A stretch of 64,000 bases of DNA from Actinomycetota bacterium (GTDB lineage: Bacteria; Actinomycetota; Coriobacteriia; Anaerosomatales; SLCP01), in NCBI GenBank assembly GCA_037446725.1, contig JBBIIC010000010.1, positions 1,114 through 65,113 of the forward strand, given 5' to 3'. Position numbers and translations under genes: made by a program. The notes under the pieces were generated by a model. That model saw nothing but the letters and a program-made list of their open reading frames with translations. It was not told the origin of the DNA and ran no database searches. Each line of letters opens with the position of its first letter. The first letter of the stretch is position 1. This document shows, in pieces, positions 23,456 through 56,729 of the stretch.

Positions 23456-23458
23456 CCC

Positions 23459-25366: not shown

Positions 25367-25367
25367 G

Positions 25368-30198: not shown

Positions 30199-30313
30199 GA
30201 CCGATGCGACCGCCCCTCTGCCCCGACACATGCGTGCCCGAGGCGTCGAACCAAGGATACGACAACGCCCGTCAGTCGACGAATCGCGTCGGCTCGGGCG
30301 TCAGGTTCGCGAC

Positions 30314-42246: not shown

Positions 42247-43002
42247 TCACTCCCAGCCTTCGGCCCTGCGCCTCGCGATGCGCTTGACGAGCACGACGCG
42301 GGCGAGCGCCATGCTGAGCTCGTACAAACCGACAAGGGCGCCGAACAGTGCGAGCATCGTCACCGGTGACCAGTCCGGCGTCGCGCCGGCAGCCACGACC
42401 ATGAGGACCGTGTAGACGACACGCCAGTTCTTGCGCAGCTTCTCGTACGGCACGATGTTGAAGACCATGAGGTAGAAGATGACGATGGGCAGCTGGAAGG
42501 CGAGCCCGAACCCGATGAGCAGCATGATGGCGCCCTGGAAGTAGGTACTCGCCTCAGGCATCTGCGTGACGCCCTCCCACGCCTGGCCGACGATCCACTC
42601 GAACGCCGTGCCGAGGATGACCTGGTGCGCGAAGACGACACCCGCGGCGAACAGCAGGACCATCATCAGGAACGTCGGCACGAGCCACTTGCGTTCGTTG
42701 GGCTTGAGCGCGGGCAGGAAGAACGCCATCACCTGCCAGATGATGATGGGGCTGCCGATTACGAGCGTCGCGTAGAGCGCAGCGCGGAATCGCAGCGTGA
42801 ACGTCTCGAAGGGGTTGAGCACGACGAGCGGCTGGTCCCCGAAGATGTGCTGGATCGGCTCCATCACGAGGTCGTAGAAGTACGGTGCGGGGACGTACAT
42901 CACGACCGAGCCGACGAAGACGACGATGCCGATGATGATGAGGCGATGCCTCAGTTCGCGCAGGTGCTCGGTGATGGGGAGTCGCTTGGGTCCGATGGGC
43001 AT
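42247..43002 (-). CDS. tatC: Twin-arginine translocase subunit TatC
   Basis: 251 aa, 6 TM. PITEHLRELRHRL N-terminus. Confidence 0.92.
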   Translation of the reverse strand: MPIGPKRLPITEHLRELRHRLIIIGIVVFVGSVVMYVPAPYFYDLVMEPIQHIFGDQPLVVLNPFETFTLRFRAALYATLVIGSPIIIWQVMAFFLPALKPNERKWLVPTFLMMVLLFAAGVVFAHQVILGTAFEWIVGQAWEGVTQMPEASTYFQGAIMLLIGFGLAFQLPIVIFYLMVFNIVPYEKLRKNWRVVYTVLMVVAAGATPDWSPVTMLALFGALVGLYELSMALARVVLVKRIARRRAEGWE

Positions 43003-43028
43003 CGTGTCGTCAGAGGGGCGGCCGCGGG

Positions 43029-43343
43029 CTACTCCTCTTCCTCCTCGTCCTCGTCATCGGGCACGACTTCGTCCGGGATCAGCGGAGTGCCGGGTTTGCG
43101 CGCCGGGGCCGCTGCGGCGGTTGCGGAGTCATCGTCCTCTTCGACGTCGGAGAGGTTGGCCGCCGGCCGCCGGTCCGCGTAGACCTCGGCGCGGATGACC
43201 GCCTCCATGCTCTCCTGGGCGCGCTTGAACTCGCGCATCATCTGTCCGATGGTCCGGCCGAACTTGGGCAGGTTGTCCGGCCCGAAGATGAGGAGCACGA
43301 AGACGACTACTATGAACAGCTCGGTCCCGCTGATACCGAACAC
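43029..43343 (-). CDS. tatA: Twin-arginine translocase subunit TatA with long acidic C-terminal tail
   Basis: Track ORF 43029..43439 trimmed to the GTG at 43343 ((M)FGISGTELFIVVVFVLLIFGPDNLPKFGRTIG). GGAAGGG lies 7 nt upstream. Confidence 0.88.
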   Translation of the reverse strand: MFGISGTELFIVVVFVLLIFGPDNLPKFGRTIGQMMREFKRAQESMEAVIRAEVYADRRPAANLSDVEEDDDSATAAAAPARKPGTPLIPDEVVPDDEDEEEEE

Positions 43344-43386
43344 AGAGACACCCTTCCGAAAGGACCCTGCCGGAGATCCTCGGCTG

Positions 43387-43722
43387 CTAGAACTCCCGCG
43401 CCTCGGCAGCGTCACCGAAGATCGCGAACACCTTGTCAAGCCCGGTGATCCGGAAGATCTTCAGGATGTTGTCGCGCGTGCACACGAGGCGGACGGTACC
43501 GTCCCTCTCCTTGGCGCGGCGCAGACCACCCACGAGCACGCCGAGCCCCGAGCTATCGATGAAGCCGACACCCTCGAGGTCGACGACGATGCGAGAGCAC
43601 CCCGACTCGACCTGCGTGACGAGCGACTCCTTCAGACGCGGGGCGGTGTAGACGTCCACTTCGCCCTGCAGCAGCATCGTGCAGACGCCGTCGGCCTGTT
43701 CGGTCGTGATCTCGAGTTCCAT
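43387..43722 (-). CDS. STAS-domain anti-sigma-factor antagonist (SpoIIAA/RsbV-like)
   Basis: Last 111 codons of track ORF 43387..44046, from the ATG at 43722 (MELEITTEQADGVCTMLLQGEVDVYTAP...). VVDLEGVGFIDSSGLGVL with the conserved phosphorylatable Ser context. GAGGGAG upstream. Confidence 0.85.
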   Translation of the reverse strand: MELEITTEQADGVCTMLLQGEVDVYTAPRLKESLVTQVESGCSRIVVDLEGVGFIDSSGLGVLVGGLRRAKERDGTVRLVCTRDNILKIFRITGLDKVFAIFGDAAEAREF

Positions 43723-43926: not shown

Positions 43927-44277
43927 ATGTCTCTCACGATCGACATTGCCCAGGAGCCGCACCACTGGGTCCTGAGACTCGCGGGGGACCTCGACTACGG
44001 CGAGTGCGCAGCGTTCCGCCTGAGTATCGACCGGATCCTCAAGCACTTGCCGCCAGCCACCATCGTGGACCTCTCCGAGCTCGAGTATCTCGACAGCTCG
44101 GGGCTCGGCCTGCTGCTGAGCCTTTCGAAGGAGTACGGTGCGCAGGGTGGCAGACTCGTCCTGGTCACCAACGAGACCGTCGACAACATCCTGTCGCTCA
44201 CCCGGCTGAACGGGATCTTCTCGACCGCTTCGTCATTGGAAGAAGCGGTCGCAACGGTCTCCGACAAGCCCCTGTAG
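43927..44277 (+). CDS. STAS-domain anti-sigma-factor antagonist (second, divergent copy)
   Basis: Last 116 codons of track ORF 43195..44277, from the ATG at 43927 (MSLTIDIAQEPHHWVLRLAGDLDY...). IVDLSELEYLDSSGLGLL. GAAAGGA upstream. Confidence 0.85.
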   Translation: MSLTIDIAQEPHHWVLRLAGDLDYGECAAFRLSIDRILKHLPPATIVDLSELEYLDSSGLGLLLSLSKEYGAQGGRLVLVTNETVDNILSLTRLNGIFSTASSLEEAVATVSDKPL

Positions 44278-44300
44278 CCCGGATCACCTGCGGAATCGAG

Positions 44301-44328
44301 AAGGGCGGCGCCATCCGGCGCCGCCCTT
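44301..44328. terminator. Bidirectional hairpin between convergent genes (AAGGGCGGCGCC-ATCC-GGCGCCGCCCTT)
   Basis: Perfect 12-bp GC-rich stem with a 4-nt loop, 24 nt after the STAS(+) stop and 21 nt after the TPR(-) stop. No clear U-tract. Confidence 0.6.
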
Positions 44329-44348
44329 CATGCTGTGCGTGTGACCCC

Positions 44349-45011
44349 CTAGGGAGTCGTTGTGGCCTCCCCGGAGGGCGGGGCTGCCTTGATCTCGGCA
44401 AGGAGGTTCTCCGCTGCCGACGCACTGTTGCCCTCAGGCTCCAGTTCAAGGTAGCGCTCGAGATTCGCGATGGCCTTGTCTGGCTGACCAGCGAAGCGGT
44501 AGATGACCCCGGCGTTGAAGTACGCAGGTGCGAAGTCGGGCGAATCGACCTGGACCGTCTCAATCACCTGGATCGCGGCCTGCGTCTGGCCGGAGTAGAA
44601 CAGCGCAACAGCGAAGTCCGTGGCGACGTTCGGGTCACCGGGTTCGATCTGTAGCGCGCGGTCGTACAGCGTCGCGGCGGAAAGCCACATCGGCAGGTCG
44701 TTGCCCGTAGTCGTCCCGACGGTCTGCTGGATCTGCAGCCCCCAGTCGAAATACGTGTTGCCGAGGCCCACCATCGCCGTGTAGCTCGTCGGCTCACTCG
44801 CAAGGGCAGCCGTGTAGGAGTTCACCGCCGGCAGGTGCTCGTTCGCGATCCGCTCGAGGGCCGCTCCCGTCTCAGTTGCACCGCTGGCATCCTGATTGCC
44901 GGCCTCGTTCCCGAGGAACAGCGCGGGGATGATGCTCACGACGAAGGCGAAGGCGACGAAGATGAGGACCGCCTTGACCCAGATCGACGACTGCTTCTTG
45001 TTGATGGCCAC
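44349..45011 (-). CDS. Membrane-anchored TPR-repeat protein
   Basis: 220 aa. N-terminal TM helix (IWVKAVLIFVAFAFVVSIIPALFLG), then TPR-like repeats (LGNTYFDWG, YDRALQIEPGDPNV, YFNAGVIYRFAGQPDKAIANLERYLELEP). Confidence 0.7.
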   Translation of the reverse strand: MAINKKQSSIWVKAVLIFVAFAFVVSIIPALFLGNEAGNQDASGATETGAALERIANEHLPAVNSYTAALASEPTSYTAMVGLGNTYFDWGLQIQQTVGTTTGNDLPMWLSAATLYDRALQIEPGDPNVATDFAVALFYSGQTQAAIQVIETVQVDSPDFAPAYFNAGVIYRFAGQPDKAIANLERYLELEPEGNSASAAENLLAEIKAAPPSGEATTTP

Positions 45012-45014
45012 GCG

Positions 45015-45392
45015 CTACTCGCTCCCGCCCTCAGGCGTCGCGGTCGCCTCGCCGCCGCCCATGCCACCGATGTCGGGATGGCCCTCAGGCATGCCGCCCT
45101 GCATCGCTTCATCGGACAACGGGGGCGCCGGCTGGATTGCGGAAGGCAGCCCACCCGCCGGTGAACCAGCCTCCTGCTGGCCCGTGGGGATGAGGATGCC
45201 GATGATGACGCCGACGAGCAGCGCCACAACGCCGATGAGCCCGGCAACTGTCACCGTCACGCTCTGAGCGCTCGCGGGGGCCACAGCCTTGGGGCGCGGG
45301 GCGGGCGCTGACTGGTGGCCGGAGGCCTGCTTGGCGGCCGGCTTCTCGGCAGCCTGCTCTTCGTCGTCGAAGAAGAAGTCCTGGTCACTCAC
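45015..45392 (-). CDS. Small single-pass membrane protein, unknown function
   Basis: 125 aa. Acidic N-terminus MSDQDFFFDDEEQ, TM helix VTVAGLIGVVALLVGVIIGILI, and an exported Gly/Pro-rich tail with MPEGHPDIGGMGGG. Confidence 0.5.
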   Translation of the reverse strand: MSDQDFFFDDEEQAAEKPAAKQASGHQSAPAPRPKAVAPASAQSVTVTVAGLIGVVALLVGVIIGILIPTGQQEAGSPAGGLPSAIQPAPPLSDEAMQGGMPEGHPDIGGMGGGEATATPEGGSE

Positions 45393-45426
45393 GGGTCGTT
45401 TCCCTTCTACTGTGGCAGGTCGCGCC

Positions 45427-45882
45427 TCAGCAGCCGTTCCGGAATCCGGAGTCGCCGCCGCGGCACCGCGCGATTATAGCACGCACCCTCGGCGCTTCAC
45501 CGGCAACCTCGAAACGCCGGTCGAAGCGTCTGAGAGAGACGAGCGCCAGCGCACCGGCGCCGATCCCGATCACCGCACCGAGCGCGTCGGGTGCGAACTT
45601 CGCCCAGGTCCCAAGCAAGAAGCCAGCCAGATACCCGCCGCCTATCGCCGTCACAGGAACTACATAGATGAGTCCCTGTGCGCGACGGCGCGCGCGCAGC
45701 GGCGTCTCGACCTCGACGGTATCCCCCACACCCGCCCCCTGGTCGTTGAGAGCCCCTTCGAGCAGGCGCTTTCCGCCCACTCCCTCGGCACAGCCGCCAC
45801 ACGCCTCGCACGCCGCGGACGGCTCGATGGCGACGTGAACCATGTCGCCGGTGACGCAGACGACGGTGCCGCGTTCGCGCAC
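45427..45882 (-). CDS. rseC: RseC/MucC-family (SoxR-reducing-system RseC-like) protein
   Basis: 151 aa. N-terminal GTVVCVTGDMVHVAIEPSAACEACGGC motif and two C-terminal TM helices. Confidence 0.75.
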   Translation of the reverse strand: MRERGTVVCVTGDMVHVAIEPSAACEACGGCAEGVGGKRLLEGALNDQGAGVGDTVEVETPLRARRRAQGLIYVVPVTAIGGGYLAGFLLGTWAKFAPDALGAVIGIGAGALALVSLRRFDRRFEVAGEAPRVRAIIARCRGGDSGFRNGC

Positions 45883-45883
45883 C

Positions 45884-47233
45884 CTAAGGCCTCAGCTTGT
45901 CGCGCATCTCTTCGGCGCGAGCCTGGATGCGGTCCATATCGAGAAGGCTCCACCGTCCAGTGTCGTAGAGCACCTGGCCGGCAACCATCGTGAACATCAC
46001 GTTCTCTTGGTTCGCGGTGTGCACGAGCGTGCTGTACGGGTAGAGCGTGGGGATCTGGTGGCTGTGCGAGATGTCCACCGCGATGATGTCGGCGTGCTTG
46101 CCCGGCTCGAGCGACCCGATCCGATCGTCCAGGCCGAGGGCGCGCGCCGCTTCCAGCGTGCCCATCTTGACGAACTGACGGGCGATGAGATGCGGCTCGT
46201 ACCCGGCGACCGAGCGCTGGATGAGCAGCCCTATCCGCATCTCGTCGAACATGTCGAGAGTGTTGCTCGCCGCCGGGGAGTCGGTACCGATGCCGACCCG
46301 AACGCCGCGCTGGAGCAGACTGCCGAGCGGGGCGACGCCCATACCGAGCTTGGCGTTGCACCTCGGACAGTACGCCACCGCGACGTCGTGCGCGGCAAGC
46401 GTCTCGATGTCGGCGTCGTCGACCTGCGTGCAATGCACCGCGAGGATCTGTGGAACGTCGAAAAGACCCCATTGGTCGATGTAGCGTACCGGGCTGACGC
46501 CCGTCGGCAGCCAGCCGAGGTCCGAACTCGAGTAGGTGTCGCGGTAGTCGACCGCCAGGCGCGAGCTTCCGTACTTGACGAAGTCGTACTCGTCCTTGGA
46601 GCCGGCGACGTGCATGGAGACCGGCAGATCATCGGCGATCGCCTTCTCGGCGACCTGGCGGTAGACCTCCGGATGGCAGCTGTACGTCGCGTGGGGGGCG
46701 ATGCCCACGGTCAGGCGGGAGGGGTCGCCGTACTCGCGCCATGCGGCGATGTCCTCGCTGGCTTTCGCCATCACGCCGCTGACCTCACGCTTGTCCATCG
46801 TCGAGACCTCGCGGTAGATCACCGCGCGCAGCCCCGATCCGGCAGCCGCCCGCGCCGAGGCGCCGGTCTCGGTGATGTCGGCGATGGTGGTGATGCCCGA
46901 CCGCAGCGCCTCGGCTGCCCCGAGGTGGGCCGACTCCTCCCAGTCATCGCCATTAAGACGATCCTCGCGGTCGAGAAGCTGCAGTTTCCACTGCGAGTAG
47001 GGCAGGTCGTCCACCAGCCCACGCATCACGGAGTACTCGAGGTGTGTGTGCAGGTCGACCAGCCCCGGCATCAAGACTGCCAGCCCGAAGTCGCGGACCT
47101 CCTCGTCAGGATGTGCAGCCTTGAGCTTCTCGAGCTCGCCGATCTCGACGATGCGGTCGCCCTGAACGAGCACAGCGCCGTCGACGATGTGCGGAGCGGC
47201 TATGGGCAGCACGTACCGGGCAGCGAGTAGCAT
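45884..47233 (-). CDS. Metal-dependent amidohydrolase (MtaD / aminofutalosine-deaminase / chlorohydrolase-like)
   Basis: Track ORF 45884..47266. ATG at 47233 (MLLAARYVLPIAAPHIVDGAVLV...) with GGGGGA upstream. PGLVDLHTHLEYS (HxH), AVHCTQ, and GTDSPASN. The subfamily is not resolvable by eye. Confidence 0.8.
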   Translation of the reverse strand: MLLAARYVLPIAAPHIVDGAVLVQGDRIVEIGELEKLKAAHPDEEVRDFGLAVLMPGLVDLHTHLEYSVMRGLVDDLPYSQWKLQLLDREDRLNGDDWEESAHLGAAEALRSGITTIADITETGASARAAAGSGLRAVIYREVSTMDKREVSGVMAKASEDIAAWREYGDPSRLTVGIAPHATYSCHPEVYRQVAEKAIADDLPVSMHVAGSKDEYDFVKYGSSRLAVDYRDTYSSSDLGWLPTGVSPVRYIDQWGLFDVPQILAVHCTQVDDADIETLAAHDVAVAYCPRCNAKLGMGVAPLGSLLQRGVRVGIGTDSPAASNTLDMFDEMRIGLLIQRSVAGYEPHLIARQFVKMGTLEAARALGLDDRIGSLEPGKHADIIAVDISHSHQIPTLYPYSTLVHTANQENVMFTMVAGQVLYDTGRWSLLDMDRIQARAEEMRDKLRP

Positions 47234-47294
47234 CGACGTCCCCCTGCAGACTAGGTGTGTCGCCATTCTAGCAGCAAGAAGTCAGTCTGAGGGC

Positions 47295-47398
47295 GGCGGG
47301 GAGGGCTGTACGGCGAGTTCTGCAGCACGGAGGGAAGGCGCGGAGCGCCGAGGGCCCCTCCGCGCGAAGCCTGCCTGAGCCGGGCAGCCCTCCCCGCC
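47295..47398. other. Nested inverted-repeat (structured) intergenic element
   Basis: Outer arms GGCGGGGAGGGCTG (47295-47308) / CAGCCCTCCCCGCC (47385-47398). Inner hairpin GCGCGGAG (47338-47345) / CTCCGCGC (47358-47365). It lies between the ubiE stop and the amidohydrolase start. Confidence 0.45.
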
Positions 47399-47411
47399 GA
47401 CCCCCCGCCCG

Positions 47412-48167
47412 CTACTTCACAGCGGTGTGGATGGCGACGATGCCGCCGGTGCGGTCCTCCCAGGAGATCGCGGTGAACCCGGCGGCGCGCAGCTCGGCGG
47501 CAAGCGCGCCCTGCGACGGGAACGAGCGGATCGAGTCGTTGAGGTAGACGAAGGACGCCCGGTCGCGGGTGAGCAGCCCGCCGATGGCGGGGATCACGAC
47601 GCGCAGATAGACGTGGTAGAGCCAGCGCCACGGCGCGAAGGGCGGGCGTGAGAACTCGAGGATCACGTAGCGGCCGCCCGGCCTGAGTACGCGCAGGACC
47701 TCGGCGAGGTTGGCCTCGCGGTCCGGGAGGTTCCGCACCCCGAACGCCACGGTCACAACGTCGAAGGATGAGTCAGGAAACGGCAGGTCCTGCGCATCGG
47801 CTACCGAGAAAGACACCTTGGTGCGCCCCTTGAATCCCCGCGCCTTCTGCTCCGCGACCGCAAGCATCTCGGGCACGAAGTCGGTCCCGACCACCTCGGC
47901 CGGCCGGCCCTGCCGGGCGAGCGCAAGCGAGAGGTCACCCGTGCCGGCACACAGATCGAGTACGCGGCTCGAGGTCTTGAGATTGGCGGCCTGCACGGCA
48001 GCGCGGCGCCACGAGCGGTCGATCCCGAAGCTCGAGAGGATGTTGAACAGGTCGTACTTGTCCGCGATGAGGGAGAAGATGCCCCGGACGCGGTCGGCGG
48101 TGGGCTCACCGGGCGCAGGCGCCGCGGTGCCGCTCACGCCGTCGCGCTCGTCGATCGTGACGGACAT
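47412..48167 (-). CDS. ubiE: Demethylmenaquinone / ubiquinone-type C-methyltransferase (UbiE/MenG family)
   Basis: Track ORF 47412..48257 trimmed to the ATG at 48167 (MSVTIDERDG...). YDLFNILSSFGIDRSWRR and VLDLCAGTGDL (SAM motif I). TGATG overlap with the radical SAM stop. Confidence 0.85.
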   Translation of the reverse strand: MSVTIDERDGVSGTAAPAPGEPTADRVRGIFSLIADKYDLFNILSSFGIDRSWRRAAVQAANLKTSSRVLDLCAGTGDLSLALARQGRPAEVVGTDFVPEMLAVAEQKARGFKGRTKVSFSVADAQDLPFPDSSFDVVTVAFGVRNLPDREANLAEVLRVLRPGGRYVILEFSRPPFAPWRWLYHVYLRVVIPAIGGLLTRDRASFVYLNDSIRSFPSQGALAAELRAAGFTAISWEDRTGGIVAIHTAVK

Positions 48168-49957
48168 CAGGCCTCCGGGGTCTCGCACGCAGGACGGGGC
48201 CCGGGCACGGGGGGCTTCCGGGACCCGAACAGGGTAGCGAGATTCTCCCTCACCCACAACACGACGACATGGTAGACGTGGCGCGCGTGGATGTAGCGCG
48301 GCCAGTTGAGCTCGCTCTTCTCGCAGACGGTCGACTCGCTCAGCCGGTCGACCTCCCCCTTGAGCGCGGCGAGCTTGCGCTCGCGCACCGCGGCATCGGA
48401 CTCGCCCATCACGGAGTCGATGCGCTCCATGGCCTCGCGCGCCTGTAGGATGCGGTCCTCGGTGCGCGAAGCGACCCCGGGCTCGATGAGACCGAGACGG
48501 CCCTTGAGACGGTTGAGGCGCAGGCCCACCTCATACATCGTGTCGACCATCTCGTCTTTGGACAACGCATCGCTCTCGTAGTTCATGATGTACTTCCACG
48601 AGGGCCGCACGAGCAGCTGCCGATGCTCCTCCAGCGTGTCCGCGAGTAGCGTGTAGCCGTACTTCTCCGGGTTGTCATAGACCATCGAGCCCGGATCGAG
48701 GAACGGCGCCATCGGCGAGGAGAAGCACAACAGCCGCTTGTCGTTGTCGACCTGTGCGTAGAGCGATTCGAGGTAGGCGGGTGTCTCGAGCACCGAGGCG
48801 GCCGTTTGGGTCGGGATGCCGGTCATCATGTAAAGGTCGAACCGCGAACAGCCGTTGCGCAGCGCCGCGGCGATCGACTGTTCGACCTGAGCCGTCGTGT
48901 AGTGCGTCTTGCCGAACGCGGCCCGCACGTCGTCGTCGTGCGTCTCGATGCTGATCTCGACCGAGTAGTCGTCGAGGTGCTCGTTCAAGAAGCGGTAGAA
49001 GTCCTCGGCCGGCGGCTTGAAGAACTCGAACCCGATGGGATTGCGCAGGTTGATCTTCGAGAGCCCGCGTATGAACGCGGCGGTGTAGTCCCGTCCGGCC
49101 TGCAGGAAGTCGTTGAGCACGAAGATCGGGCCCGGGATGTACTTCTGGAAGTGCTCGATGTCGCGGACGAGCAGTTCGGGATCTCGGAAGGCGACCCGGT
49201 CGCGCCCGTAATGCGTGCGGAATGAGTACGCCGAGCCCCCGCACGTCACGCAGTTGCGCGTGCATCCGCGGCACGTCAGCGAGGCGCAGACGGGGTACTG
49301 CAGCCAGTCCTTGAACGGCACGAAGCCCATCATGTCGCGGTAGCGGATGACGGCCTTCATGTTGAAGGAGTAGTCGAGCGAGATGTCGTTCATGTCGCCG
49401 GGGACCCACTCGAACGGCGTGCTGTGCACCGAGCCCTGCCGCGTGGTGTAGGTGAGGTTGGGGATGTCGTCAACGCGTCCCTTGGCCTTGAGCGCGTAGA
49501 GCAGCCGCGTCATCGGCTCCTCGGTCGAGTCGCCACGCACCACGTAGTCGACCCACGGGTAGCTCGCCAACTCCTCGTGGAAAAAGCTCGCCGACAGCCC
49601 GCCGAAGATGACCGGCGTGTCGGGGTGGTACTTCTTGCAGATCTTCGCGATCTCGACCGACCCGTGGGCGTGCGGCAGCCAGTGCAGGTCGATGCCGAAG
49701 GCCACCGGGTTCATCTCACGGATGGCCTTCTCGACGTCGAAGCCCGGCTTGTTGAGCATGAGCACCGCGAGGTTGACGATGCGGACCTTCAGTCCGTGGC
49801 GCTCCATGTACTCGGCCATGGTCGTGAAGCCGAGCGGATACATCTCGAAGACAGGGGTCGAGGGCACCATGTCGGACACGGGTCCGAACATGATGGAGCG
49901 CTCTCTAAAGTCATACACGCTCGGTGCATGGAGCAGTACGAGATCGACACGCGACAT
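48167..49957 (-). CDS. Cobalamin-binding-domain (class B) radical SAM protein, function unknown
   Basis: 596 aa. N-terminal B12-binding-like region (VDLVLLHAPSVYDFRERSIMFGPVSDMVPSTPVFEMYPLGFTTMAEYMERHG) and a CX3CX2C cluster CTRNCVTC. GGAGGA lies 10 nt upstream. Confidence 0.8.
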   Translation of the reverse strand: MSRVDLVLLHAPSVYDFRERSIMFGPVSDMVPSTPVFEMYPLGFTTMAEYMERHGLKVRIVNLAVLMLNKPGFDVEKAIREMNPVAFGIDLHWLPHAHGSVEIAKICKKYHPDTPVIFGGLSASFFHEELASYPWVDYVVRGDSTEEPMTRLLYALKAKGRVDDIPNLTYTTRQGSVHSTPFEWVPGDMNDISLDYSFNMKAVIRYRDMMGFVPFKDWLQYPVCASLTCRGCTRNCVTCGGSAYSFRTHYGRDRVAFRDPELLVRDIEHFQKYIPGPIFVLNDFLQAGRDYTAAFIRGLSKINLRNPIGFEFFKPPAEDFYRFLNEHLDDYSVEISIETHDDDVRAAFGKTHYTTAQVEQSIAAALRNGCSRFDLYMMTGIPTQTAASVLETPAYLESLYAQVDNDKRLLCFSSPMAPFLDPGSMVYDNPEKYGYTLLADTLEEHRQLLVRPSWKYIMNYESDALSKDEMVDTMYEVGLRLNRLKGRLGLIEPGVASRTEDRILQAREAMERIDSVMGESDAAVRERKLAALKGEVDRLSESTVCEKSELNWPRYIHARHVYHVVVLWVRENLATLFGSRKPPVPGPRPACETPEA

Positions 49958-50033
49958 GAAGCCAGGTTCCTCCTGTCGTGGTCAGCCGGTCGGGTACCCC
50001 CGGCAGGGTACCGGCCGCGGCCGAACGGCCGAG

Positions 50034-50042
50034 AGTATAGCA
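50034..50042 (-). promoter_or_regulatory. Extended -10-like TGCTATACT upstream of the radical SAM/ubiE pair
   Basis: Minus strand: ccccaTGcTATACTctcgg, about 77 nt upstream of the ATG at 49957. A GGTACCC-N6-GGGTACC hairpin (49994-50013) lies in the putative 5' UTR. Confidence 0.35.
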
Positions 50043-50085
50043 TGGGGCATGCCGGGCCCAGGGCGCACGCGTGGGCATCGGCCCA

Positions 50086-50106
50086 CCGGATGGCTTCGCC
50101 ATCCGG
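50086..50106 (-). terminator. Hairpin CCGGATGGC-N3-GCCATCCGG downstream of the cytochrome genes
   Basis: Perfect 9-bp stem. A second hairpin (TTGTCGG 50160-50166 / CCGACAA 50185-50191) lies nearer the stop at 50223. Neither has a U-tract. Confidence 0.3.
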
Positions 50107-50222
50107 GCCATCGCTCCTGCCCCGGCCGGCCGTGCCCCGGGGTACCGCCGGAACACGCCTTGTCGGCTAGGGCTGTTCCTCCACCCGACAACGCCAGGCA
50201 AGAGCGTGGACCGGTCTTGTGG

Positions 50223-51401
50223 CTACGGCGACACCGATCCGCGCACGTGGCACTCGGCGCAGTACGTCGGCGCATGGCAGTCGAAGCATGCCTGCGCTCC
50301 GGACTCGCGCACCGGATCCATGTGCTGCTGGATCCACGTCCGGGCAGGATCGATCTCACCGTGGTGACAGTCGTTGCAGAAGTCGGCGCCGGGCTGACTT
50401 GCGTGGCACCTCTCGCAGACCTCGGGACGCGTCTTGCCGTCTTCGCCGTGGTCCTCCCCGAAGCCCTCGGGATGCGGCATCTGCACGCCGTGGCAACCGT
50501 CGCAGAACTCGCGCTCGTTGTGGCAGGTCTGGCAGTACCCGACCGCCGCGACGGGCGGCAGGTGCAGGAGCTGCTCTTCCATCGGGGCGTCGGTGTGCGG
50601 CTCCTCGAGGCCCTCACGTGCGGCCGTGTAGGCCGCGTAGTCCTCGTTGGCGAGCGCCGCGTGGCCGCCGCTCTCACCAAACGCCTCGTAGAAGCCCGGC
50701 TCGTCGTGATTAGCAGGCATGAGATCGAAGTCCGCAGGGTGGCATGCCTCGCACTCGCCCGGCGCGACGATGCCGCTCACCGACTCACCGCTTGTCGTAT
50801 GACAGCGGTAGCACGCCGCCATGAGCATGAAGTCCTCGTGCGGCTGGTTGGGCTCCCCGGTGTTGGGGTCGGTCAAAGTGAGTTCGAAGTCCTCTACGTG
50901 TGCGGTCCGGTTGTGGCAGACCGTACAGTGGATCTCGGCCTCCTCGTGTACAGCGTGGTCGATGATGATGCCTTTGCTCGGCGTGACGTTGCGGTTCTCA
51001 AGCCAGTGGCACTGGTTGCACTGCTTCGAGCCCATATGCGCACCGTCGAGCGCGAGATGCGAGCCCTTGTTCAGGGGCAGCTCGAACTTGTTGGTCGCGG
51101 TGAGGTAGAGCTCGCCGAGTGCCTCGGCCTTGTGGAGCAGGAAAGTGACCGGGTCGGCGTTCACCGGCATATGGCACGCCATACACGAGATCTCCGAGTG
51201 CGGCGAGCGATTGTACGCGAGGATAGTGTCGTCCTGAACCTTGTGGCACCCCTCGGCGCAGAACCAGTACGTCGAGGTGACGCCGAGCGCGGCAATCACG
51301 AACGCGGCGAGCCCGATGACCCCCGCGGCGGTCCAGGCGATGTAGCGGGGACGCCTGACCGGATCCGTGTAGCCGGAGAAGAATCCCCTCACGTCTGGCA
51401 T
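50223..51401 (-). CDS. Membrane-anchored dodecahaem cytochrome c with NapC/NirT/NrfH-like N-terminal module
   Basis: 392 aa. One TM helix (YIAWTAAGVIGLAAFVIAALGVTSTYWF) is followed directly by C48AEGCH (CX3CH). There are 11 further CXXCH motifs, at C73, C128, C159, C197, C217, C290, C300, C329, C342, C372 and C381. Confidence 0.9.
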   Translation of the reverse strand: MPDVRGFFSGYTDPVRRPRYIAWTAAGVIGLAAFVIAALGVTSTYWFCAEGCHKVQDDTILAYNRSPHSEISCMACHMPVNADPVTFLLHKAEALGELYLTATNKFELPLNKGSHLALDGAHMGSKQCNQCHWLENRNVTPSKGIIIDHAVHEEAEIHCTVCHNRTAHVEDFELTLTDPNTGEPNQPHEDFMLMAACYRCHTTSGESVSGIVAPGECEACHPADFDLMPANHDEPGFYEAFGESGGHAALANEDYAAYTAAREGLEEPHTDAPMEEQLLHLPPVAAVGYCQTCHNEREFCDGCHGVQMPHPEGFGEDHGEDGKTRPEVCERCHASQPGADFCNDCHHGEIDPARTWIQQHMDPVRESGAQACFDCHAPTYCAECHVRGSVSP

Positions 51402-51504
51402 CCGTGCAATCCCTGTCTCCTCAGCGCGACCACGTACCCCGCTTCACAACCGTATCATGCCACAAGCCCGGGAACCCGGCGGCGAACCCGCGTCATGCGC
51501 CCGC

Positions 51505-54063
51505 CTAGTAGTACCAGTCCGTGACCCCGGGCGCGGTGACATACACGGAGCCGAATATCTCTCCGCCATCGTAGATGTCGTTCCAGTACACGTACACATT
51601 GTAGGGAGCCGCCTGCACCGGGACGTTGTTGATGGTCGAGATGCCGTTCCAAGAGGGCCCGCCGTCGTTGCCGGATGCAATCAGCCGCCCGTTCGTGCTG
51701 TTGCGTACCTCGTAGTACACACTCTCGTTGTTGCCACCCACGAATCCCGTCCACAGCAACCGGAGGGTCGCCGTCGGGCTCGACACGGTGAAGGTCGCCC
51801 TGTTGACGGGCTCGACGTTGCCGACCGAGTCGACCGACCAGAACTCGAGAGTGTGGTTTGCGCTGCCGCCGACTGGCGGCGCGGGCACGTTGACCGTCGT
51901 CCCCGTCTGCTGCGCGCCACCGTTGAGCCGATAGTGTGTGGCTGCGACAGTCGAGTGGGCATCGGTTGCCGTCAGCGTGATGGTGGCTGGTCCGATGTAA
52001 GAGGGCTGCGCGTTCGACGTCGTCACCGGCGGTGTCGTGTCGGCCGCAACCGTGAACAGGGCGGTCTTGCGAGCCTCGCTGTTGCCCAATTTGTCCAGCG
52101 ACCAAAACTGGATCGTGTGCACCCGCGTGCCGGAGAGGGGCGGCAGCACTCGTATGGTGGTGCCCACCTGGACCGGGCCTCCGTCGATCGTGTAGTAGGT
52201 GCGCCTGAGCCCGTGGACGAGCGAGTAGTACGGCACGTCTACGTCCGCAGCGGTCAGCTGGATGGTGGCACCACCGATGTAGGAGGCCACGGCGTTCGAG
52301 TTGGTCAACGGCGGGGTTGTATCTGTCACGTGACACCGTGCGCACAAGTTGAACGAAGCGTAGTCCCAGCCGCCACCCCAGGTCTTATTGTGGCAGCTCC
52401 AGCAGTTGTCGCCGACGTCGAACGGATGGTCGTACGCGATCCCTTCAGTCCGGTGGTTGAAGTCCGAGTGGACAGAGGAATGGCAGCCGCCCTGGCTACA
52501 GGTGGCGGACCACTCCGTGAACGTGTCTCGCGGGGTCGGATGGCACGAGGAGCAATCCGTGCCGTGAACGGTGGCCACGTTGGCGTTGCTGTGACACGGG
52601 TCGCAGGTGTAGGTGTCCCCTTCGATCTGGCTCGTCATCAGCGAGTAGTCGGCCGCGTGGCCGTGAGGCTCGAGTTGAGCGGAGTGGCAGGTGCCGCAGT
52701 CGAAGGTCGGCGACACTCCCGAATGGCACGCATCGCAGCCCGGGAGAGGCTCACCGGTGACCACCGAGCTCCCGAAGTGGATGTCGATCGCGTCTCCGGC
52801 TTCATGGCATGCGGTGCACTCCGTATACTCTTCGGGCACCTCGTGCAGCAACGAATGGCAGTTGAGACAGAGGCCATAACGGGGAGTCGACGCGTCCTCC
52901 ACGGCGGGTTCGATTGGTCTCACCAGGAAGTACTCGACGTCGCTCTCGTGCGGGAACACCTGGAACCGCGGGTTGTCGGTCGACTCCACACTCGGCGAGG
53001 TCGTCACGTTCTCGGAAGCATATGACGTGACCGAGAACTCCTGTCCTGCCAGCAGCGTCGGGTTCGTCCCTCGCTCGGACGGACCGACATCTCGCGCATC
53101 CTCGTGGCACTGCTGACAGATCGGTCCTCTGCCTTGCTGCAACTCGGTGCGCGCGGTCGTCTCCATCGATTCGCGGGGCATGATGTATCCGGCGTTGTCC
53201 TGGCCGAGGCTCCCGATCATGGTCTGCGTGGAGTCGACACCGTCAACGACCGGCAGGCGGTCGTAGTAGTACGCATCGCCCTCCGGCGCGACCAGGTCGT
53301 TCTCGACCGTATGGTCGCGCATGAGACCCGAGTCCTCGCGGTGCTGTCCGACACGTCCCTGGTGGCACGAAGCGCACCAGGCCGTGCCATACACGCCTAC
53401 GGTGGTCTCCGAGCTGCCGGGGGACTGTTTGAGCAGCCGATTGGTCCTGACGGCGTAGGCGGCATCACTTGCGACTGAAGAGCGCAGCCGATCGCCGAGG
53501 AAGGGCTCGATGGTCTCGGTATCGTGCGGTGAATGGCAGTCGCTGCACGTGAGTGTGCCGCCGGGACCCGAAAAGACCCCGGCGCTGCTCGTGGTGCCCA
53601 CCGAGCCGCCGGGGATGACACTCGTCGCCTCAATGCTGTGAGTCGCGGCCGGTTCCAGCCCGGTCCTGGCCTTGATCACACCGTAGACACCGGTCCCACC
53701 CGTCCCGTCGTGGCATGATTCGCAGGTCGCCTTGATCGTGGCCCCCGGCAGGAGCTTCACACCGGCGACCGGCGCCGCGTGAACCGAGTGGCAGGCCTGG
53801 CACTTGTTGGTGCCGGTCGTGAACGCGCCGTGCGGGCCCTTGCGGGTGTCGGCGGTCGGCGTGGTCTCGCTGCTCGACTCGAGGACCGCCTGCTCGGTGA
53901 GCCCGTGACAGTCGATGCACTGACTGCGGGCGACGCCTTCGGGGTAGGTAGCACTCTCGCTGGGATAGGCGAACGCGGCAGCGGCGGTCAGGAAGACCGC
54001 GCACGCCGCAATGGCGGCAACAGCTGCTGCTCTCGACAACCTCATCCGCGCCGATCTCCGCAT
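51505..54063 (-). CDS. Exported pentadecahaem cytochrome c with two tandem Ig-like surface domains and a C-terminal beta-sandwich-like domain
   Basis: 852 aa. Signal peptide (MRLSRAAAVAAIAACAVFLTAAAAFA; start 54063 or 54045). There are 14 CXXCH motifs, at C49, C88, C114, C173, C230, C316, C399, C416, C443, C456, C487, C504, C554 and C574, plus one CX4CH (C522SQGGCH). Repeats at aa 581-674 and 675-762. No LPXTG or SLH motif seen. Confidence 0.9.
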   Translation of the reverse strand: MRRSARMRLSRAAAVAAIAACAVFLTAAAAFAYPSESATYPEGVARSQCIDCHGLTEQAVLESSSETTPTADTRKGPHGAFTTGTNKCQACHSVHAAPVAGVKLLPGATIKATCESCHDGTGGTGVYGVIKARTGLEPAATHSIEATSVIPGGSVGTTSSAGVFSGPGGTLTCSDCHSPHDTETIEPFLGDRLRSSVASDAAYAVRTNRLLKQSPGSSETTVGVYGTAWCASCHQGRVGQHREDSGLMRDHTVENDLVAPEGDAYYYDRLPVVDGVDSTQTMIGSLGQDNAGYIMPRESMETTARTELQQGRGPICQQCHEDARDVGPSERGTNPTLLAGQEFSVTSYASENVTTSPSVESTDNPRFQVFPHESDVEYFLVRPIEPAVEDASTPRYGLCLNCHSLLHEVPEEYTECTACHEAGDAIDIHFGSSVVTGEPLPGCDACHSGVSPTFDCGTCHSAQLEPHGHAADYSLMTSQIEGDTYTCDPCHSNANVATVHGTDCSSCHPTPRDTFTEWSATCSQGGCHSSVHSDFNHRTEGIAYDHPFDVGDNCWSCHNKTWGGGWDYASFNLCARCHVTDTTPPLTNSNAVASYIGGATIQLTAADVDVPYYSLVHGLRRTYYTIDGGPVQVGTTIRVLPPLSGTRVHTIQFWSLDKLGNSEARKTALFTVAADTTPPVTTSNAQPSYIGPATITLTATDAHSTVAATHYRLNGGAQQTGTTVNVPAPPVGGSANHTLEFWSVDSVGNVEPVNRATFTVSSPTATLRLLWTGFVGGNNESVYYEVRNSTNGRLIASGNDGGPSWNGISTINNVPVQAAPYNVYVYWNDIYDGGEIFGSVYVTAPGVTDWYY
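51778..52323 (-). repeat. Tandem duplication encoding two ~90-aa Ig-like domains inside the cytochrome gene
   Basis: DTTPPLTNSNAVASYIGGATIQLTAAD...YYTIDGGPVQVGTTIRV...HTIQFWSLDKLGNSE...FTVAA is followed by DTTPPVTTSNAQPSYIGPATITLTATD...HYRLNGGAQQTGTTVNV...HTLEFWSVDSVGNVE...FTVSS. Confidence 0.8.
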
Positions 54064-54134
54064 CCGCTCACAGACGGAGATCCCACTGAGTACACCATAT
54101 CTGTGATTATGGAATCATCCCTATTCTGGCACCG

Positions 54135-54150
54135 TGTGAGCTACGTCACA
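54135..54150. promoter_or_regulatory. Perfect palindrome TGTGA-GCTACG-TCACA (Rex- or CRP/FNR-type operator candidate) upstream of the cytochrome genes
   Basis: The 18-mer GTGTGAGCTACGTCACAA (54134-54151) matches the Rex consensus TTGTGAA-N4-TTCACAA at 11 of 14 specified positions. It is also identical to the CRP core TGTGA-N6-TCACA. It lies 72-87 nt upstream of the ATG at 54063. A left half-site, TGTGATTATGGAATCA, is at 54102-54117. Confidence 0.5.
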
Positions 54151-54289
54151 ATCATACCCTGGTACGAGGGGTCGTCCGTCGCCGGTCGCACCCGCCTTCA
54201 CACCCATTATGGGCACCTGCCGGAACGCGATGCCCGCGACGGGGGCTCAGACCAGAGAACCTCCACATTCCACGCGGAGTCGCCCCTCG

Positions 54290-55396
54290 CTACCGGGCGA
54301 GCCGCAACACCTGGATCCGGTCGTTCTCCTTGTCCGCGATGAGCAGAAGCTCGCCGTCTTCGGACACGTCGATCCCGTTCGGGAAGTTGAGCTGTGCGGG
54401 CAGGACGCCACGCGTACCTACCGAGGTCTGCGGCGTGCCCTTCCCGTCGAGCAGGACCACCGAGAACGTGAACGCATCTACCACGGCGAAGGTGTCCTCA
54501 TCGACGACCGCGATTCCTCTCGGCAACCCGAACTCGTAGGGTGTCCCCCCCTGCGCGCCCGTCTCCCACATGAATACCCCGTCAAGTGTGAAAGCCTGCA
54601 CCCGGCCGTTGTTCGAGTCGGCGACGAGTACGGTCGAATCCGGCATGATCGCGATCCCGTTCGGCCGCGCGAACTCCCCGGCGCCGCTGCCGGGCCGGCC
54701 GAACTGGCGCACGAACTCGCCGTCCTTGGTGAAGACGACCACCTGGTAGCTGTCGAGCGCATACACGAGATCGCCCCACAGCGCGACGTCGGTGACCGCG
54801 ATCCCGGTGCCGTCCTGTCCTGAGGCGCCGCGCCCCACCACGGTGTTCGGATCGGGGAAGCGTCTCAGGAAACGGCCCTGCTCGTCGAACACCTGGATCT
54901 GGTCGTTGCGGAAGTCGGCGACGTAGACATCACCGTCTTCGTCCACTTCTATACCCAGCGGCGAGTTCATGAGACCCGCCTCCCAGGTGGCCTCGTAGCC
55001 CGGAAGCGGCTTCGTGAGCCCGAACCCACCGAAAACGAAGAGGAAGCGTCCGCTCGGTCCGAACGCTGCCACCCTGTTGTTCTCGGTGTCGACTACGTAG
55101 ATCTTGCCGTCGGGCGCGAACGCCGCGTCCATCGGGCGGTCGAACCCCGGCGCGTCTCCCCTGCCGGGACCCGATATGGTCATCACGGGAGTCAGGCCGG
55201 CAATCGTCTCTCCCCCGCGAGTCACGAACCCGTCGGGCGTGGAGGGGTAGGAGATCATGTAGACGACGAGGCCGATGAGGACGATGGCAAGGAGGACAGC
55301 GGTCAGGATAAGGAGTCGTCTCGCGGACAAGAGACGGACGGCCAGGCCGCCATCATCCGTCGGCGTGACCTCGACCGGCGGCTGCCGTTCGCTCAC
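54290..55396 (-). CDS. Membrane-anchored NHL-repeat six-blade beta-propeller protein
   Basis: 368 aa. TM helix LLILTAVLLAIVLIGLVVYMI, then six NHL-like repeats (FDRPMDAAFAPDGKIYVVDTENNRVAAF, LNSPLGIEVDEDGDVYVADFRNDQIQVF, FARPNGIAIMPDSTVLVADSNNGRVQAF, LNFPNGIDVSEDGELLLIADKENDRIQVL and others). Confidence 0.88.
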   Translation of the reverse strand: MSERQPPVEVTPTDDGGLAVRLLSARRLLILTAVLLAIVLIGLVVYMISYPSTPDGFVTRGGETIAGLTPVMTISGPGRGDAPGFDRPMDAAFAPDGKIYVVDTENNRVAAFGPSGRFLFVFGGFGLTKPLPGYEATWEAGLMNSPLGIEVDEDGDVYVADFRNDQIQVFDEQGRFLRRFPDPNTVVGRGASGQDGTGIAVTDVALWGDLVYALDSYQVVVFTKDGEFVRQFGRPGSGAGEFARPNGIAIMPDSTVLVADSNNGRVQAFTLDGVFMWETGAQGGTPYEFGLPRGIAVVDEDTFAVVDAFTFSVVLLDGKGTPQTSVGTRGVLPAQLNFPNGIDVSEDGELLLIADKENDRIQVLRLAR

Positions 55397-56094
55397 GGTG
55401 TCACCCCCAGACGATTGAGACCCGCGAGCGCCTCCTCGAGACCCGGATCGTAGCTCAGGGCGATCCGGTAGCGCTCCTCGGCCAAGCCTGGCTGTCCGAC
55501 CTGCTCGTAGGCCTCCCCAAGTAATGCCTGCAGGTCAGCGCTATGGGGATCCTCCGAGAGGGCGGGAGGCAGGATCTCCGTGACACGCGCCCACTCCCCC
55601 CGCTCGGCGAGACGCCGGGCGAGAAGTGCCGCTGCCAGCGTGTGGGTTGGCCAGGCTTCCAGGGTCGCCTCAAGGAGCTCTTCTGCCTCGGCCCCACGGC
55701 CGAGTTCGATCAGGCACACGGCACCGTTGTAGAGAGCGGCCGGCTCGTCCTTCCGCACGGACAGCACTGCCTCATACTCCTTGACAGCGTCGGCATACCT
55801 GCCGGATTCCTGGTACGCATAGCCGAGGACAAGCCGCGCGTCTAGATCGTCGGGGTTCGCCTCCAGCGTTGCTGAGAGCTCAGCGATGCGCTCCTCCTGC
55901 GGACCGGCATGCCGTCGTTCCCCGCCGCCAACGGTGAGCACGACGAGCACCCCAGCTCCCACGACCGCAACGGCGAGTACGACGACGAGGGTCACGAGCC
56001 GGCGAGGAGCCTCGGCGGCCGTGTCGCGAACGTCGTTCGGGTCGGTCGGGGCGTCGGGTCCGCTGATCTCGGGTGTGCCGACTTCTAGGGTCAC
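55393..56094 (-). CDS. Membrane-anchored TPR-repeat protein
   Basis: 233 aa. TM helix LVTLVVVLAVAVVGAGVLVVLTV, then TPR repeats (LVLGYAYQESGRYADAVKEYEAVL and others). 4-nt overlaps on both sides. Confidence 0.8.
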   Translation of the reverse strand: MTLEVGTPEISGPDAPTDPNDVRDTAAEAPRRLVTLVVVLAVAVVGAGVLVVLTVGGGERRHAGPQEERIAELSATLEANPDDLDARLVLGYAYQESGRYADAVKEYEAVLSVRKDEPAALYNGAVCLIELGRGAEAEELLEATLEAWPTHTLAAALLARRLAERGEWARVTEILPPALSEDPHSADLQALLGEAYEQVGQPGLAEERYRIALSYDPGLEEALAGLNRLGVTP

Positions 56095-56729
56095 GCAGAC
56101 GCACTCCGTGGGCTGAGGTGGAACGATAGTATCTGCAACTCGCCTGCCACGTCTGCCTGACGAACTTCGACCCCTTCGGGTACCTGAAGCTGAACGGGAG
56201 CGAAGTTCATGATGGCCCGCACACCTGAGGCGACAAGGCGGTCTGCCACCCCCTGCGCGTTAGCCGCCGGCACGGTGATGATGGCAATCTCGACGCCCTC
56301 GCGGTCAACGACCGCCTCGAGGTTGTCCGCGTCTTCGACCGTATGGCCGTCGACGGCCGTCCCGATCTTCGCGGGATCGGCGTCGAGCACCGCGACGACC
56401 TTCATGCCGCGCTCTTCGAACCCCGGGTAGCTCTGCAGCGCGCTGCCGAGGCGCCCATATCCGACGATGGCGACGCGCCGGTGCTCGGTCAGCCCGAGGT
56501 GCTTAGAGAGATGGCTGATGAGCAAGTCGACGTCATAGCCGATGCCCCTCACCCCGAACTCCCCGAGATACGAGAGGTCCTTGCGCACCTGCGCGGCGTT
56601 GGTGCCCGCCATCTCGGCGATCTGCACCGAGTTGACCACGGGCATATGCAACGCGCTCGCCTGAACGAGACAGCGCAGGTAAACCGGCAGGCGTTGTACG
56701 GTCGTGGGAGGGATCTGGGGTGCCTTCAT
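56091..56729 (-). CDS. rex: Redox-sensing transcriptional repressor Rex
   Basis: 212 aa. VQRLPVYLRCL, VRKDLSYLGEFGVRGIGYDV, and Rossmann motif VAIVGYGRLGSAL. Confidence 0.93.
   Translation of the reverse strand: MKAPQIPPTTVQRLPVYLRCLVQASALHMPVVNSVQIAEMAGTNAAQVRKDLSYLGEFGVRGIGYDVDLLISHLSKHLGLTEHRRVAIVGYGRLGSALQSYPGFEERGMKVVAVLDADPAKIGTAVDGHTVEDADNLEAVVDREGVEIAIITVPAANAQGVADRLVASGVRAIMNFAPVQLQVPEGVEVRQADVAGELQILSFHLSPRSASA

Follow-up and report, generated by a model that had tools for sequence, protein, structure and literature searches.

The electron acceptors open to an anaerobe depend on the redox potential of its membrane quinone pool, which is determined by modifications of the quinone head group. 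To our knowledge, menaquinone is over-methylated only by radical S-adenosylmethionine (SAM) enzymes of class C, namely the HemN-like MenK, MqnK and MenK2, which make 8- and 7-methylmenaquinone. Here we analyse a stretch of 64,000 nucleotides (nt; hereafter the window) from an Actinomycetota bacterium of the Anaerosomatales (contig JBBIIC010000010.1, assembly GCA_037446725.1), where a radical SAM gene of class B type is directly joined to a gene for a UbiE/MenG methyltransferase. The encoded radical SAM protein belongs to the NCBIfam family TIGR04190, whose members, judging from their gene neighbourhoods, probably represent an unrecognised enzyme building or modifying respiratory quinones. The sequence object is not new in itself; what appears unreported is the linkage of a class B family to late menaquinone biosynthesis in multiple lineages, including natural fusions with MenG.

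The radical SAM gene occupies positions 48167-49957 on the minus strand and encodes a protein of 596 residues, which is identical to that on the NCBI contig CAYMQC010000006.1 (GCA_964392675.1); its nearest species-level relatives are found in metagenome-assembled genomes (MAGs) of Anaerosomatales and Coriobacteriia. The extended -10-like box TGCTATACT is situated 77 nt 5' of the ATG (50042-50034, minus strand). In 9 of 11 relatives the box recurs at the same alignment position as GTGCTATACT, amid intergenic sequence that has diverged. A generic scan for the sigma-70 -35/-10 consensus found no promoter, and predicted terminators occurred at chance level; the promoter call thus rests on conservation among relatives, which is good evidence that the putative promoter, already proposed in the first-pass annotation, is a real extended -10 element. 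A ribosome-binding site (RBS), AGGAGG, follows at 49969-49974 (minus strand), 11 nt 5' of the start codon, and this region (AGAAAGG/AGGAGG...CTGGCTTCATG) is kept among the aligned relatives. At the other end of the gene, the junction with ubiE reads ...GGCCTGATGTCC: the TGA stop codon (48169-48167) and the ATG start codon (48167-48165) overlap by one base (TGATG), and the genes called independently on a near-identical contig show the same 1-nt overlap. The downstream gene (47412-48167, minus strand) encodes 251 residues matching PF01209 over the full length (222.5 bits), TIGR01934 with 241.2 bits against a cut-off of 158.35 and NF001244 with 226.7 bits against 216. Having passed one subfamily and one equivalog cut-off, the protein is, by its sequence profiles, a genuine member of UbiE/MenG. 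Overlap and gene identity had both been read from the DNA in the first pass, and both stand. Taken together, the arrangement shows a unit promoter-RBS-radical SAM-UbiE, whose two genes would be translationally coupled.

The leader of the radical SAM gene (49975-50030, minus strand) also contains two short GC-rich inverted repeats, CGGCCGTTCGGCCG and GGTACCCTGCCGGGGGTACC, which are partly kept in relatives. A riboswitch or other RNA element was considered for this leader and rejected, an Rfam scan of positions 44000-56000 at E ≤ 1 having returned noise only. No Rex operator (TGTGA...TCACA) was obvious by eye in the leader of the window.

The radical SAM protein carries a B12-binding domain at residues 35-146 (Pfam PF02310, 54.7 bits, cut-off 32.1) and a Radical_SAM domain at residues 228-392 (PF04055, 35.5 bits). 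Its sole CX3CX2C motif is CTRNCVTC (residues 232-239), and the three cysteines of this motif, C232, C236 and C239, are the only family-conserved ones, each being at least 90% conserved among 63 family members. The open reading frame, the B12-binding N-terminus and the cysteine cluster thus agree with the class B-like gene described in the first-pass annotation, and classification with hidden Markov models places the protein in TIGR04190 (B12_SAM_Ta0216, "Ta0216 family"). Indeed, it scores 621.6 bits against a cut-off of 500, with residues 5-543 aligned to positions 1-536 of the 554 in the model. The remaining class B families of NCBIfam all score below 55 bits, the top one being the hopanoid C-3 methylase HpnR (53.8 bits, cut-off 650). 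A sequence search of the PDB matched no chain. An AlphaFold2 model was built on the 63 family members and has high confidence values (pLDDT 94.4, pTM 0.92). When this model was submitted to Foldseek, the top matches were the cobalamin-dependent TokK, TsrM, OxsB and CysS, followed by AprD4 and MiaB, with E-values of 1e-12 to 5e-16, a TM-score of about 0.55 and 11-15% identity for the best of them. The model superposes on the B12 domains of TokK, TsrM, OxsB and CysS.

By its B12 Rossmann domain, its single CX3CX2C motif and its modelled structural neighbours, the protein is a class B-type enzyme, predicted to be cobalamin-dependent, it being known from AprD4 that a class B fold can occur without cobalamin. 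It is clearly not of the class C (HemN-like) MenK/MqnK type: no HemN-type domain was matched in Pfam or NCBIfam. Likewise, no hydrophobic transmembrane segment was found in it. TIGR04190 is a large family, comprising over 7000 proteins when clustered at 90% and 323 clusters of 50% identity at E ≤ 1e-30, and NCBI gives its name to relatives in Coriobacteriia, Thermoplasmata, Dehalococcoidales, KSB1 and Thermodesulfobacteriota. Among relatives of about 30% identity, the only functional clue offered by protein names was the automatic label 'CloN6'. The first-pass annotation could assign no function to this radical SAM family, and our literature search (TIGR04190/Ta0216, B12 radical SAM with menaquinone, thermoplasmaquinone biosynthesis, OPB41 quinones) also found none assigned in the searchable literature.

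The association with UbiE was surveyed in 79 loci from GTDB species representatives. The order radical SAM-UbiE-amidohydrolase is kept in nearly all loci of sufficient length, down to 52% identity of the radical SAM protein in Geothermincolia-like MAGs. When the spacing was measured in 50 loci, from the radical SAM stop codon to the first possible UbiE start, the two genes were at most 8 nt apart or overlapping in 49. Furthermore, two 50%-identity clusters (P0124 and P0125) consist of in-frame fusions of the radical SAM protein with a full-length UbiE, 44-50% identical to the UbiE of the window. The fusion genes lie on different contigs: one stands alone among unrelated genes, outside the synteny block, and the other is followed by amidohydrolase and TPR genes. 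In the Geothermincolia-like loci, a polyprenyl synthase gene is inserted in the series, giving radical SAM-UbiE-polyprenyl synthase-amidohydrolase with spacers of only 1-5 nt. The pairing with ubiE, which had been proposed from a single locus, is thus recurrent within this clade, both as close neighbours and as fusions on two contigs. Orthologues located at unrelated genes and devoid of any ubiE association were not encountered in the clade, while distant members of the family do sit elsewhere (beside MoxR or Rex/POR genes, or stand-alone).

A wider view was obtained from 80 diverse metagenomic loci, which were collected with a Thermoplasmata-centred alignment of 10 sequences and whose neighbouring genes were clustered. 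The commonest neighbour encodes a UbiA-family prenyltransferase, for which every leading NCBIfam match is a 1,4-dihydroxy-2-naphthoate polyprenyltransferase (MenA); of five MenA-like neighbours tested, two exceed the TIGR00751 cut-off. In loci labelled Dehalococcoidales by NCBI, the MenA-like gene is situated 0-50 nt upstream of the radical SAM gene, whose product is 44-46% identical to the window protein, and the order is reversed in candidate division KSB1, with the MenA-like gene 17 nt downstream of the radical SAM gene. The Dehalococcoidales pair is preceded by a gene for a SAM hydroxide adenosyltransferase (DUF62) in L141 (8119-8943) and in three related loci; besides the deaminase-type amidohydrolase of the window, this is the second adenosyl- or SAM-metabolising enzyme seen beside the family. 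Locus L082 combines the radical SAM gene with genes for a UbiE-like methyltransferase, a UbiA protein and a polyprenyl synthase. A longer cluster was observed in an Actinomycetes MAG (L068/L069), composed of a B12 radical SAM paralogue, UbiA, a second B12 radical SAM, two Peptidase_U32 proteins (UbiU/UbiV family), a UbiE-like methyltransferase and an EB_dh haem protein, and ending with TIGR04190 and then a polyprenyl synthase. By its gene content, this cluster looks like a set of genes for an anaerobically made, heavily modified quinone. Two extra, shorter B12-binding radical SAM paralogues adjoin TIGR04190 in some Actinomycetota (L068:324-9414 and L062:4455-7330). In Thermoplasmata (L083, L084), the TIGR04190 gene either follows the nuo operon directly or lies between a cis-prenyltransferase gene and nuo, and nuo genes are found beside it in four further metagenomic loci. 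Collectively, at least five gene orders in five lineages place TIGR04190 in apparent operons with late menaquinone genes, which is hard to explain by one inherited arrangement.

Gene context makes it quite likely that the radical SAM protein acts on a prenylated naphthoquinone or naphthoquinol, at the MenA/MenG stage. The more specific proposal, that the radical SAM-UbiE pair forms a two-enzyme unit of the late, membrane-lipid stage of menaquinone biosynthesis, has in our estimation an even chance of being correct. In such a unit, UbiE/MenG would carry out the ordinary SAM-dependent C2-methylation of the prenylated naphthoquinol, and the TIGR04190 enzyme, cobalamin-dependent and with a single [4Fe-4S] cluster, would introduce a second modification into the same prenyl-naphthoquinone. 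By analogy with its structural neighbours, our best guess for this reaction, held with slightly less than even confidence, is a methylcobalamin-dependent C-methylation out of reach of ordinary methyltransferases. The modification, most likely an extra C-methylation, could take place on the ring, where the electron-rich quinol would attack methylcobalamin in a TsrM/CloN6-like reaction at an sp2 carbon, or at an sp3 benzylic or allylic carbon (the C2-methyl or the side chain), through a TokK/CysS-like combination of 5'-deoxyadenosyl radical and methylcobalamin. TokK and CysS extend a methyl group to ethyl and beyond; a similar extension of the methyl group installed by UbiE would account for the tight coupling and the fusions. 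The product would be an alkylated menaquinone, for which the lowered redox potential supposed in the first-pass annotation is hypothetical, and both genes would be transcribed from the conserved -10 promoter and translated in a coupled manner. This quinone assignment also draws support, by analogy, from the closest solved structures, which are those of cobalamin-dependent methylases, and from weak family matches to isoprenoid-lipid methylases such as HpnR. The family owes its name to Ta0216 of Thermoplasma acidophilum, an organism known to contain a methylated menaquinone (thermoplasmaquinone) and methionaquinone.

Part of the evidence weighs against this assignment, with respect either to the chemistry or to the substrate. 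On the chemical side, class B enzymes also perform reactions other than methylation (OxsB, AprD4-like enzymes, Grs, Ted), and the fold is no proof of methylation. The radical SAM protein could accordingly belong to quinone biosynthesis and yet catalyse a radical ring closure, a rearrangement, or a cyclisation or desaturation of the side chain, and it could even perform a core head-group step in lineages scored as lacking men and mqn genes. We consider this explanation unlikely, while recognising that class B includes cyclases, ring-contraction enzymes and desaturases (Grs, OxsB and Ted), that the gene of Dehalococcoidales and KSB1 is paired only with a MenA-like prenyltransferase, and that L068, with its three B12 radical SAM genes and UbiU/V-like genes, suggests multi-step anaerobic head-group chemistry. 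Moreover, one paper describes Chloroflexota as for the most part 'devoid of quinone pathways' (PMC13386864), the enzymes for methionaquinone and omega-cyclic menaquinone are still not known according to a 2026 survey of bacterial quinones, and the two cultured Anaerosomatales are reported to show no respiratory quinones by standard methods (PMC9686372). In the latter case, either very little quinone is made, or the compound is missed by those methods, or the module has another role. What speaks for methylation rather than such a reaction is that the best structural neighbours of the protein are methylases and that it has a single conserved Fe-S motif; besides, coupling and fusion with a last-step methyltransferase suggest action on a late intermediate and not in head-group assembly.

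A bolder version of the quinone assignment, which we also rate as rather unlikely, would make TIGR04190 a new cobalamin-dependent radical step in isoprenoid-quinone biosynthesis with a non-canonical product, that is, an ethylated, multiply methylated or otherwise modified menaquinone. In Dehalococcoidales, KSB1 and Anaerosomatales this step might then be part of a third route, with a MenA-like prenyltransferase, replacing the men and futalosine routes. If true, this reading would explain why no quinone was detected in cultured Anaerosomatales despite Nuo and NrfH-type quinol dehydrogenases, as well as why many Chloroflexota are scored as quinone-less.

On the substrate side, the target of the radical SAM protein might not be a quinone at all but, for instance, a cofactor, a protein or a different isoprenoid lipid of the membrane, the neighbours of its gene being co-regulated 'respiratory chain' genes; in our judgement this is more doubtful still. 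The Coriobacteriia block is a long synteny run with unrelated housekeeping genes, the same-order block also including TatA/TatC, HypA/HypB and topoisomerase I, and because the whole neighbourhood is kept in this way, synteny within the order is by itself weak evidence. In more distant members, a gene for a MoxR-type AAA_3 ATPase is found directly upstream in 9 metagenomic loci (L134-L136, L140, L149, L151, L153, L155 and L163), with DUF58 downstream in two of them; there, the radical SAM gene appears to be inserted into a MoxR-DUF58 type operon. Another distant context reads Rex-CBS-radical SAM-2-oxoacid:ferredoxin oxidoreductase, and genes for a divergent NiFe hydrogenase and HypA lie beside the radical SAM gene in six loci. 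In a Thermodesulfobacteriota MAG the TIGR04190 gene has no informative neighbours, and the radical SAM protein was seen fused to a PGA_cap domain and, apparently, to TatC (P0129, encoded on one contig of 3 kb). A non-quinone substrate would suit these recurrent TatC, HypA, NiFe hydrogenase, MoxR ATPase and Rex neighbours, the weak similarity of the family to enzymes of hopanoid and ladderane lipids, and the position of the Thermoplasmata gene after a cis-prenyltransferase. Nevertheless, three observations exceed plain synteny, namely the spacing between the radical SAM and UbiE genes, the UbiE fusions and the insertion of the polyprenyl synthase gene. Indeed, the spacing of at most 8 nt is almost always kept, the in-frame fusions to full-length UbiE are two and independent, one being outside the synteny block, and the operons with MenA-like, UbiE-like or polyprenyl synthase genes come in at least five gene orders from five lineages.

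Finally, it is improbable that the UbiE-like partner is an accessory of the radical SAM protein, methylating its product or an installed heteroatom or servicing the corrinoid, and not the housekeeping demethylmenaquinone methyltransferase: UbiE-like methyltransferases tied to corrinoid proteins do exist (CpaM model, 83.7 bits here) and the fusion proteins imply a very intimate partnership, but the protein reaches 241 and 227 bits with the UbiE models, past their cut-offs, versus 84 of the 180 bits needed for CpaM, and the Geothermincolia-like UbiE gene precedes a polyprenyl synthase gene, as a normal menG does. With these alternatives weighed, we regard the module as real and a class B route in quinone biosynthesis as credible and apparently unreported, its chemistry being predicted from sequence.

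The gene downstream of ubiE encodes an amidohydrolase of the TRZ/ATZ - methylthioadenosine (MTA)/S-adenosylhomocysteine (SAH)/5'-deoxyadenosine/aminofutalosine deaminase superfamily (45884-47233, minus strand; 449 residues from the conserved start). The first-pass annotation was right about its domain (PF01979, 210 bits). The longest open reading frame starts at 47266, and the start codon has been moved to 47233 because a conserved RBS and ATG are found there in relatives, in agreement with an independent gene call, and the ATG at 47266 falls within a conserved box, TGCTAGAAT (47273-47265, minus strand). Apart from this start codon, all sequence-level statements made in the first pass were correct when checked. 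All 8 relatives compared keep the TA(G/A)(A/G)AT of this second -10-like box, and the conserved GAGGAG RBS and ATG come after it; the amidohydrolase and RseC-family genes therefore have a promoter-like element of their own.

The amidohydrolase had been read as a marker of the futalosine route to menaquinone, and this reading was not sustained. None of the NCBIfam equivalog cut-offs was reached, with scores of 292 of 540 bits for PRK09045, 260 of 522 for the 5'-deoxyadenosine deaminase and 171 of 779 for MtaD, and the aminofutalosine-deaminase family was also missed (NF006269, 177 bits versus 320). Among proteins in the PDB, the best match is the MTA/SAH deaminase 4f0r (186 bits); two characterised aminofutalosine deaminases score lower, DR_0824 with 101 bits (2imr) and Nis0429 with 81 bits (3v7p). 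By sequence, the protein thus seems to resemble the MTA/SAH/5'-deoxyadenosine deaminases more closely than it does a proven aminofutalosine deaminase. Amidohydrolases of the adenosine-analogue deaminase group are known to be promiscuous, so that aminofutalosine activity is possible too. SAH is a by-product of both UbiE and a class B methylase, and the latter also releases 5'-deoxyadenosine; removal of these compounds would therefore be at least as likely a role as deamination of aminofutalosine, and both could hold. In the proposed module, the deaminase, expressed from its own promoter, would most plausibly remove inhibitory 5'-deoxyadenosine and SAH and, alternatively or additionally, deaminate aminofutalosine.

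In the 50 related loci, the spacer between UbiE and the amidohydrolase is usually 58-94 nt, and in the fusion locus L169 and the Geothermincolia-like loci the amidohydrolase gene begins 3-11 nt behind the quinone genes. On its other side, a gene for a small membrane protein of the RseC/MucC family (45427-45882, minus strand; PF04246, 64 bits) begins 1 nt past the amidohydrolase stop codon, an order kept in about 30 related loci. The RseC/MucC-family protein has an N-terminal CxxCxxC-like motif. As a matter of pure speculation, it might serve as a membrane-tethered redox partner.

The pair belongs to a run of minus-strand genes encoding an NHL-repeat protein, an 852-residue multihaem cytochrome, a 392-residue NapC/NirT-family cytochrome, the radical SAM protein, UbiE, the amidohydrolase, the RseC-family protein, a small Pro/Ala-rich protein and a TPR protein. 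The gene immediately upstream (50223-51401, minus strand) had been described as a 12-haem quinol-dehydrogenase-like gene, and this description fits: its product is a membrane multihaem cytochrome of the NapC/NirT/NrfH family, with 11 CxxCH and one CxxxCH motifs, i.e. 12 haem sites, a NapC/NirT module at residues 25-168 (PF03264, 44.6 bits versus 24.1) and an N-terminal membrane anchor. The specific equivalogs were not reached (NrfH, 36 of 134 bits; NapC, 17 of 349). A gap of 265 nt, containing the promoter box, separates this gene from the radical SAM gene, and the cytochrome gene forms a separate transcription unit. Further upstream, profile and motif searches revealed the 852-residue cytochrome (51505-54063, minus strand) with 14 CxxCH motifs, one CxxxxCH-like site and two C-terminal OmpL47-type beta-barrel domains. 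By these features, it looks like a cell-surface protein of extracellular electron transfer, of the type discussed for Fe(III)-reducing Anaerosomatales.

The first-pass annotation had also supposed that the quinone product feeds the adjacent cytochromes. This supposition was not supported by the comparison of loci: NrfH adjoins the radical SAM gene in 43 loci, within the order-wide synteny block of TatAC, HypAB and topoisomerase I, and in at least 22 relatives the gene directly upstream encodes not NrfH but a Rex-like paralogue. This paralogue is 24% identical to the Rex redox-sensing regulator of the window (56091-56729, minus strand), which was identified by its profile match and, on the near-identical contig, by the Pfam domains Put_DNA-bind_N and CoA_binding. 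Overall, Rex-type regulators or a divergent Rex paralogue are found immediately upstream of the radical SAM gene in two separate lineages, one represented by L037 (9239-9901) and about 30 other Coriobacteriia loci, the other by L154 (1006-1740) and L159 (3108-3764). Their position suggests redox (NADH/NAD+) control of the radical SAM-UbiE pair, which would fit a role in the respiratory chain. The upstream gene, of about 215 codons, was also considered as a HepS-like prenyl synthase subunit; this was rejected for Coriobacteriia, where the gene is the Rex paralogue, and only the Geothermincolia-like version has a marginal polyprenyl_synt match (29.6 bits).

Within the 64-kb window, no mqn, men, menA or polyprenyl synthase gene and no second UbiE gene were found. 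The window also holds genes for fumarase and malate dehydrogenase. A complex I-type operon of 11 subunits (NuoA-D and NuoH-N) is situated at 20597-30231 on the minus strand, and the NADH-oxidising module NuoEFG is not part of it. TatA/TatC genes lie within a few kb of TIGR04190 in unrelated lineages, namely at 42247-43439 in the window and in L083, L062, L064, L068, L069, L060 and L172.

If confirmed, the TIGR04190 enzyme would represent a second, mechanistically different solution for quinone tailoring beside the class C MenK/MqnK, or it might belong to a quinone route that has so far gone unrecognised. A widespread class B family, repeatedly joined to MenG or MenA genes in subsurface Actinomycetota, Dehalococcoidales, KSB1 and Thermoplasmata, is a testable candidate for missing anaerobic quinone biochemistry. 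At present, quinone pathways are scored as absent from large lineages. TIGR04190 would furthermore provide a new genomic marker of respiratory capacity in uncultured groups.

Compared with described systems, the window protein is first of all a full-length, ordinary member of the TIGR04190 Ta0216 family, with no difference at the family level. It shares with TokK, TsrM and CysS the succession of B12 Rossmann domain, radical SAM barrel and C-terminal helical domain, as well as the single CX3CX2C cluster, whereas the substrates of those enzymes are carbapenam, tryptophan and cystobactamid precursors and their genes lie in natural-product clusters, not in respiratory or quinone contexts. Like the hopanoid methylases HpnP/HpnR and the archaeal Grs, Gmm, Cgm and Ted, which act on membrane isoprenoid lipids, it is of the cobalamin radical SAM type, and TIGR04190 is found in both Thermoplasmata and bacteria. 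Unlike for these enzymes, the carriers of TIGR04190 include bacteria without glycerol dialkyl glycerol tetraethers (GDGTs), and the partner genes are quinone genes, not lipid genes. A role as archaeal GDGT ring synthase (Grs) was judged unlikely on these same two grounds, by which the family is set apart from Grs and Gmm without direct comparison of their sequences. From MenK, MqnK and MenK2, the window enzyme differs in having a B12 Rossmann domain and no HemN-type domains, the structural match to HemN (1olt) being marginal (E 4.5e-4, TM-score 0.24), and its activity is a predicted one. Nonetheless, the job proposed for it is also theirs, namely to add carbon to an already prenylated menaquinone by radical SAM chemistry, and both types occur in anaerobic respirers, including relatives among the Coriobacteriia, alongside MenG/UbiE.

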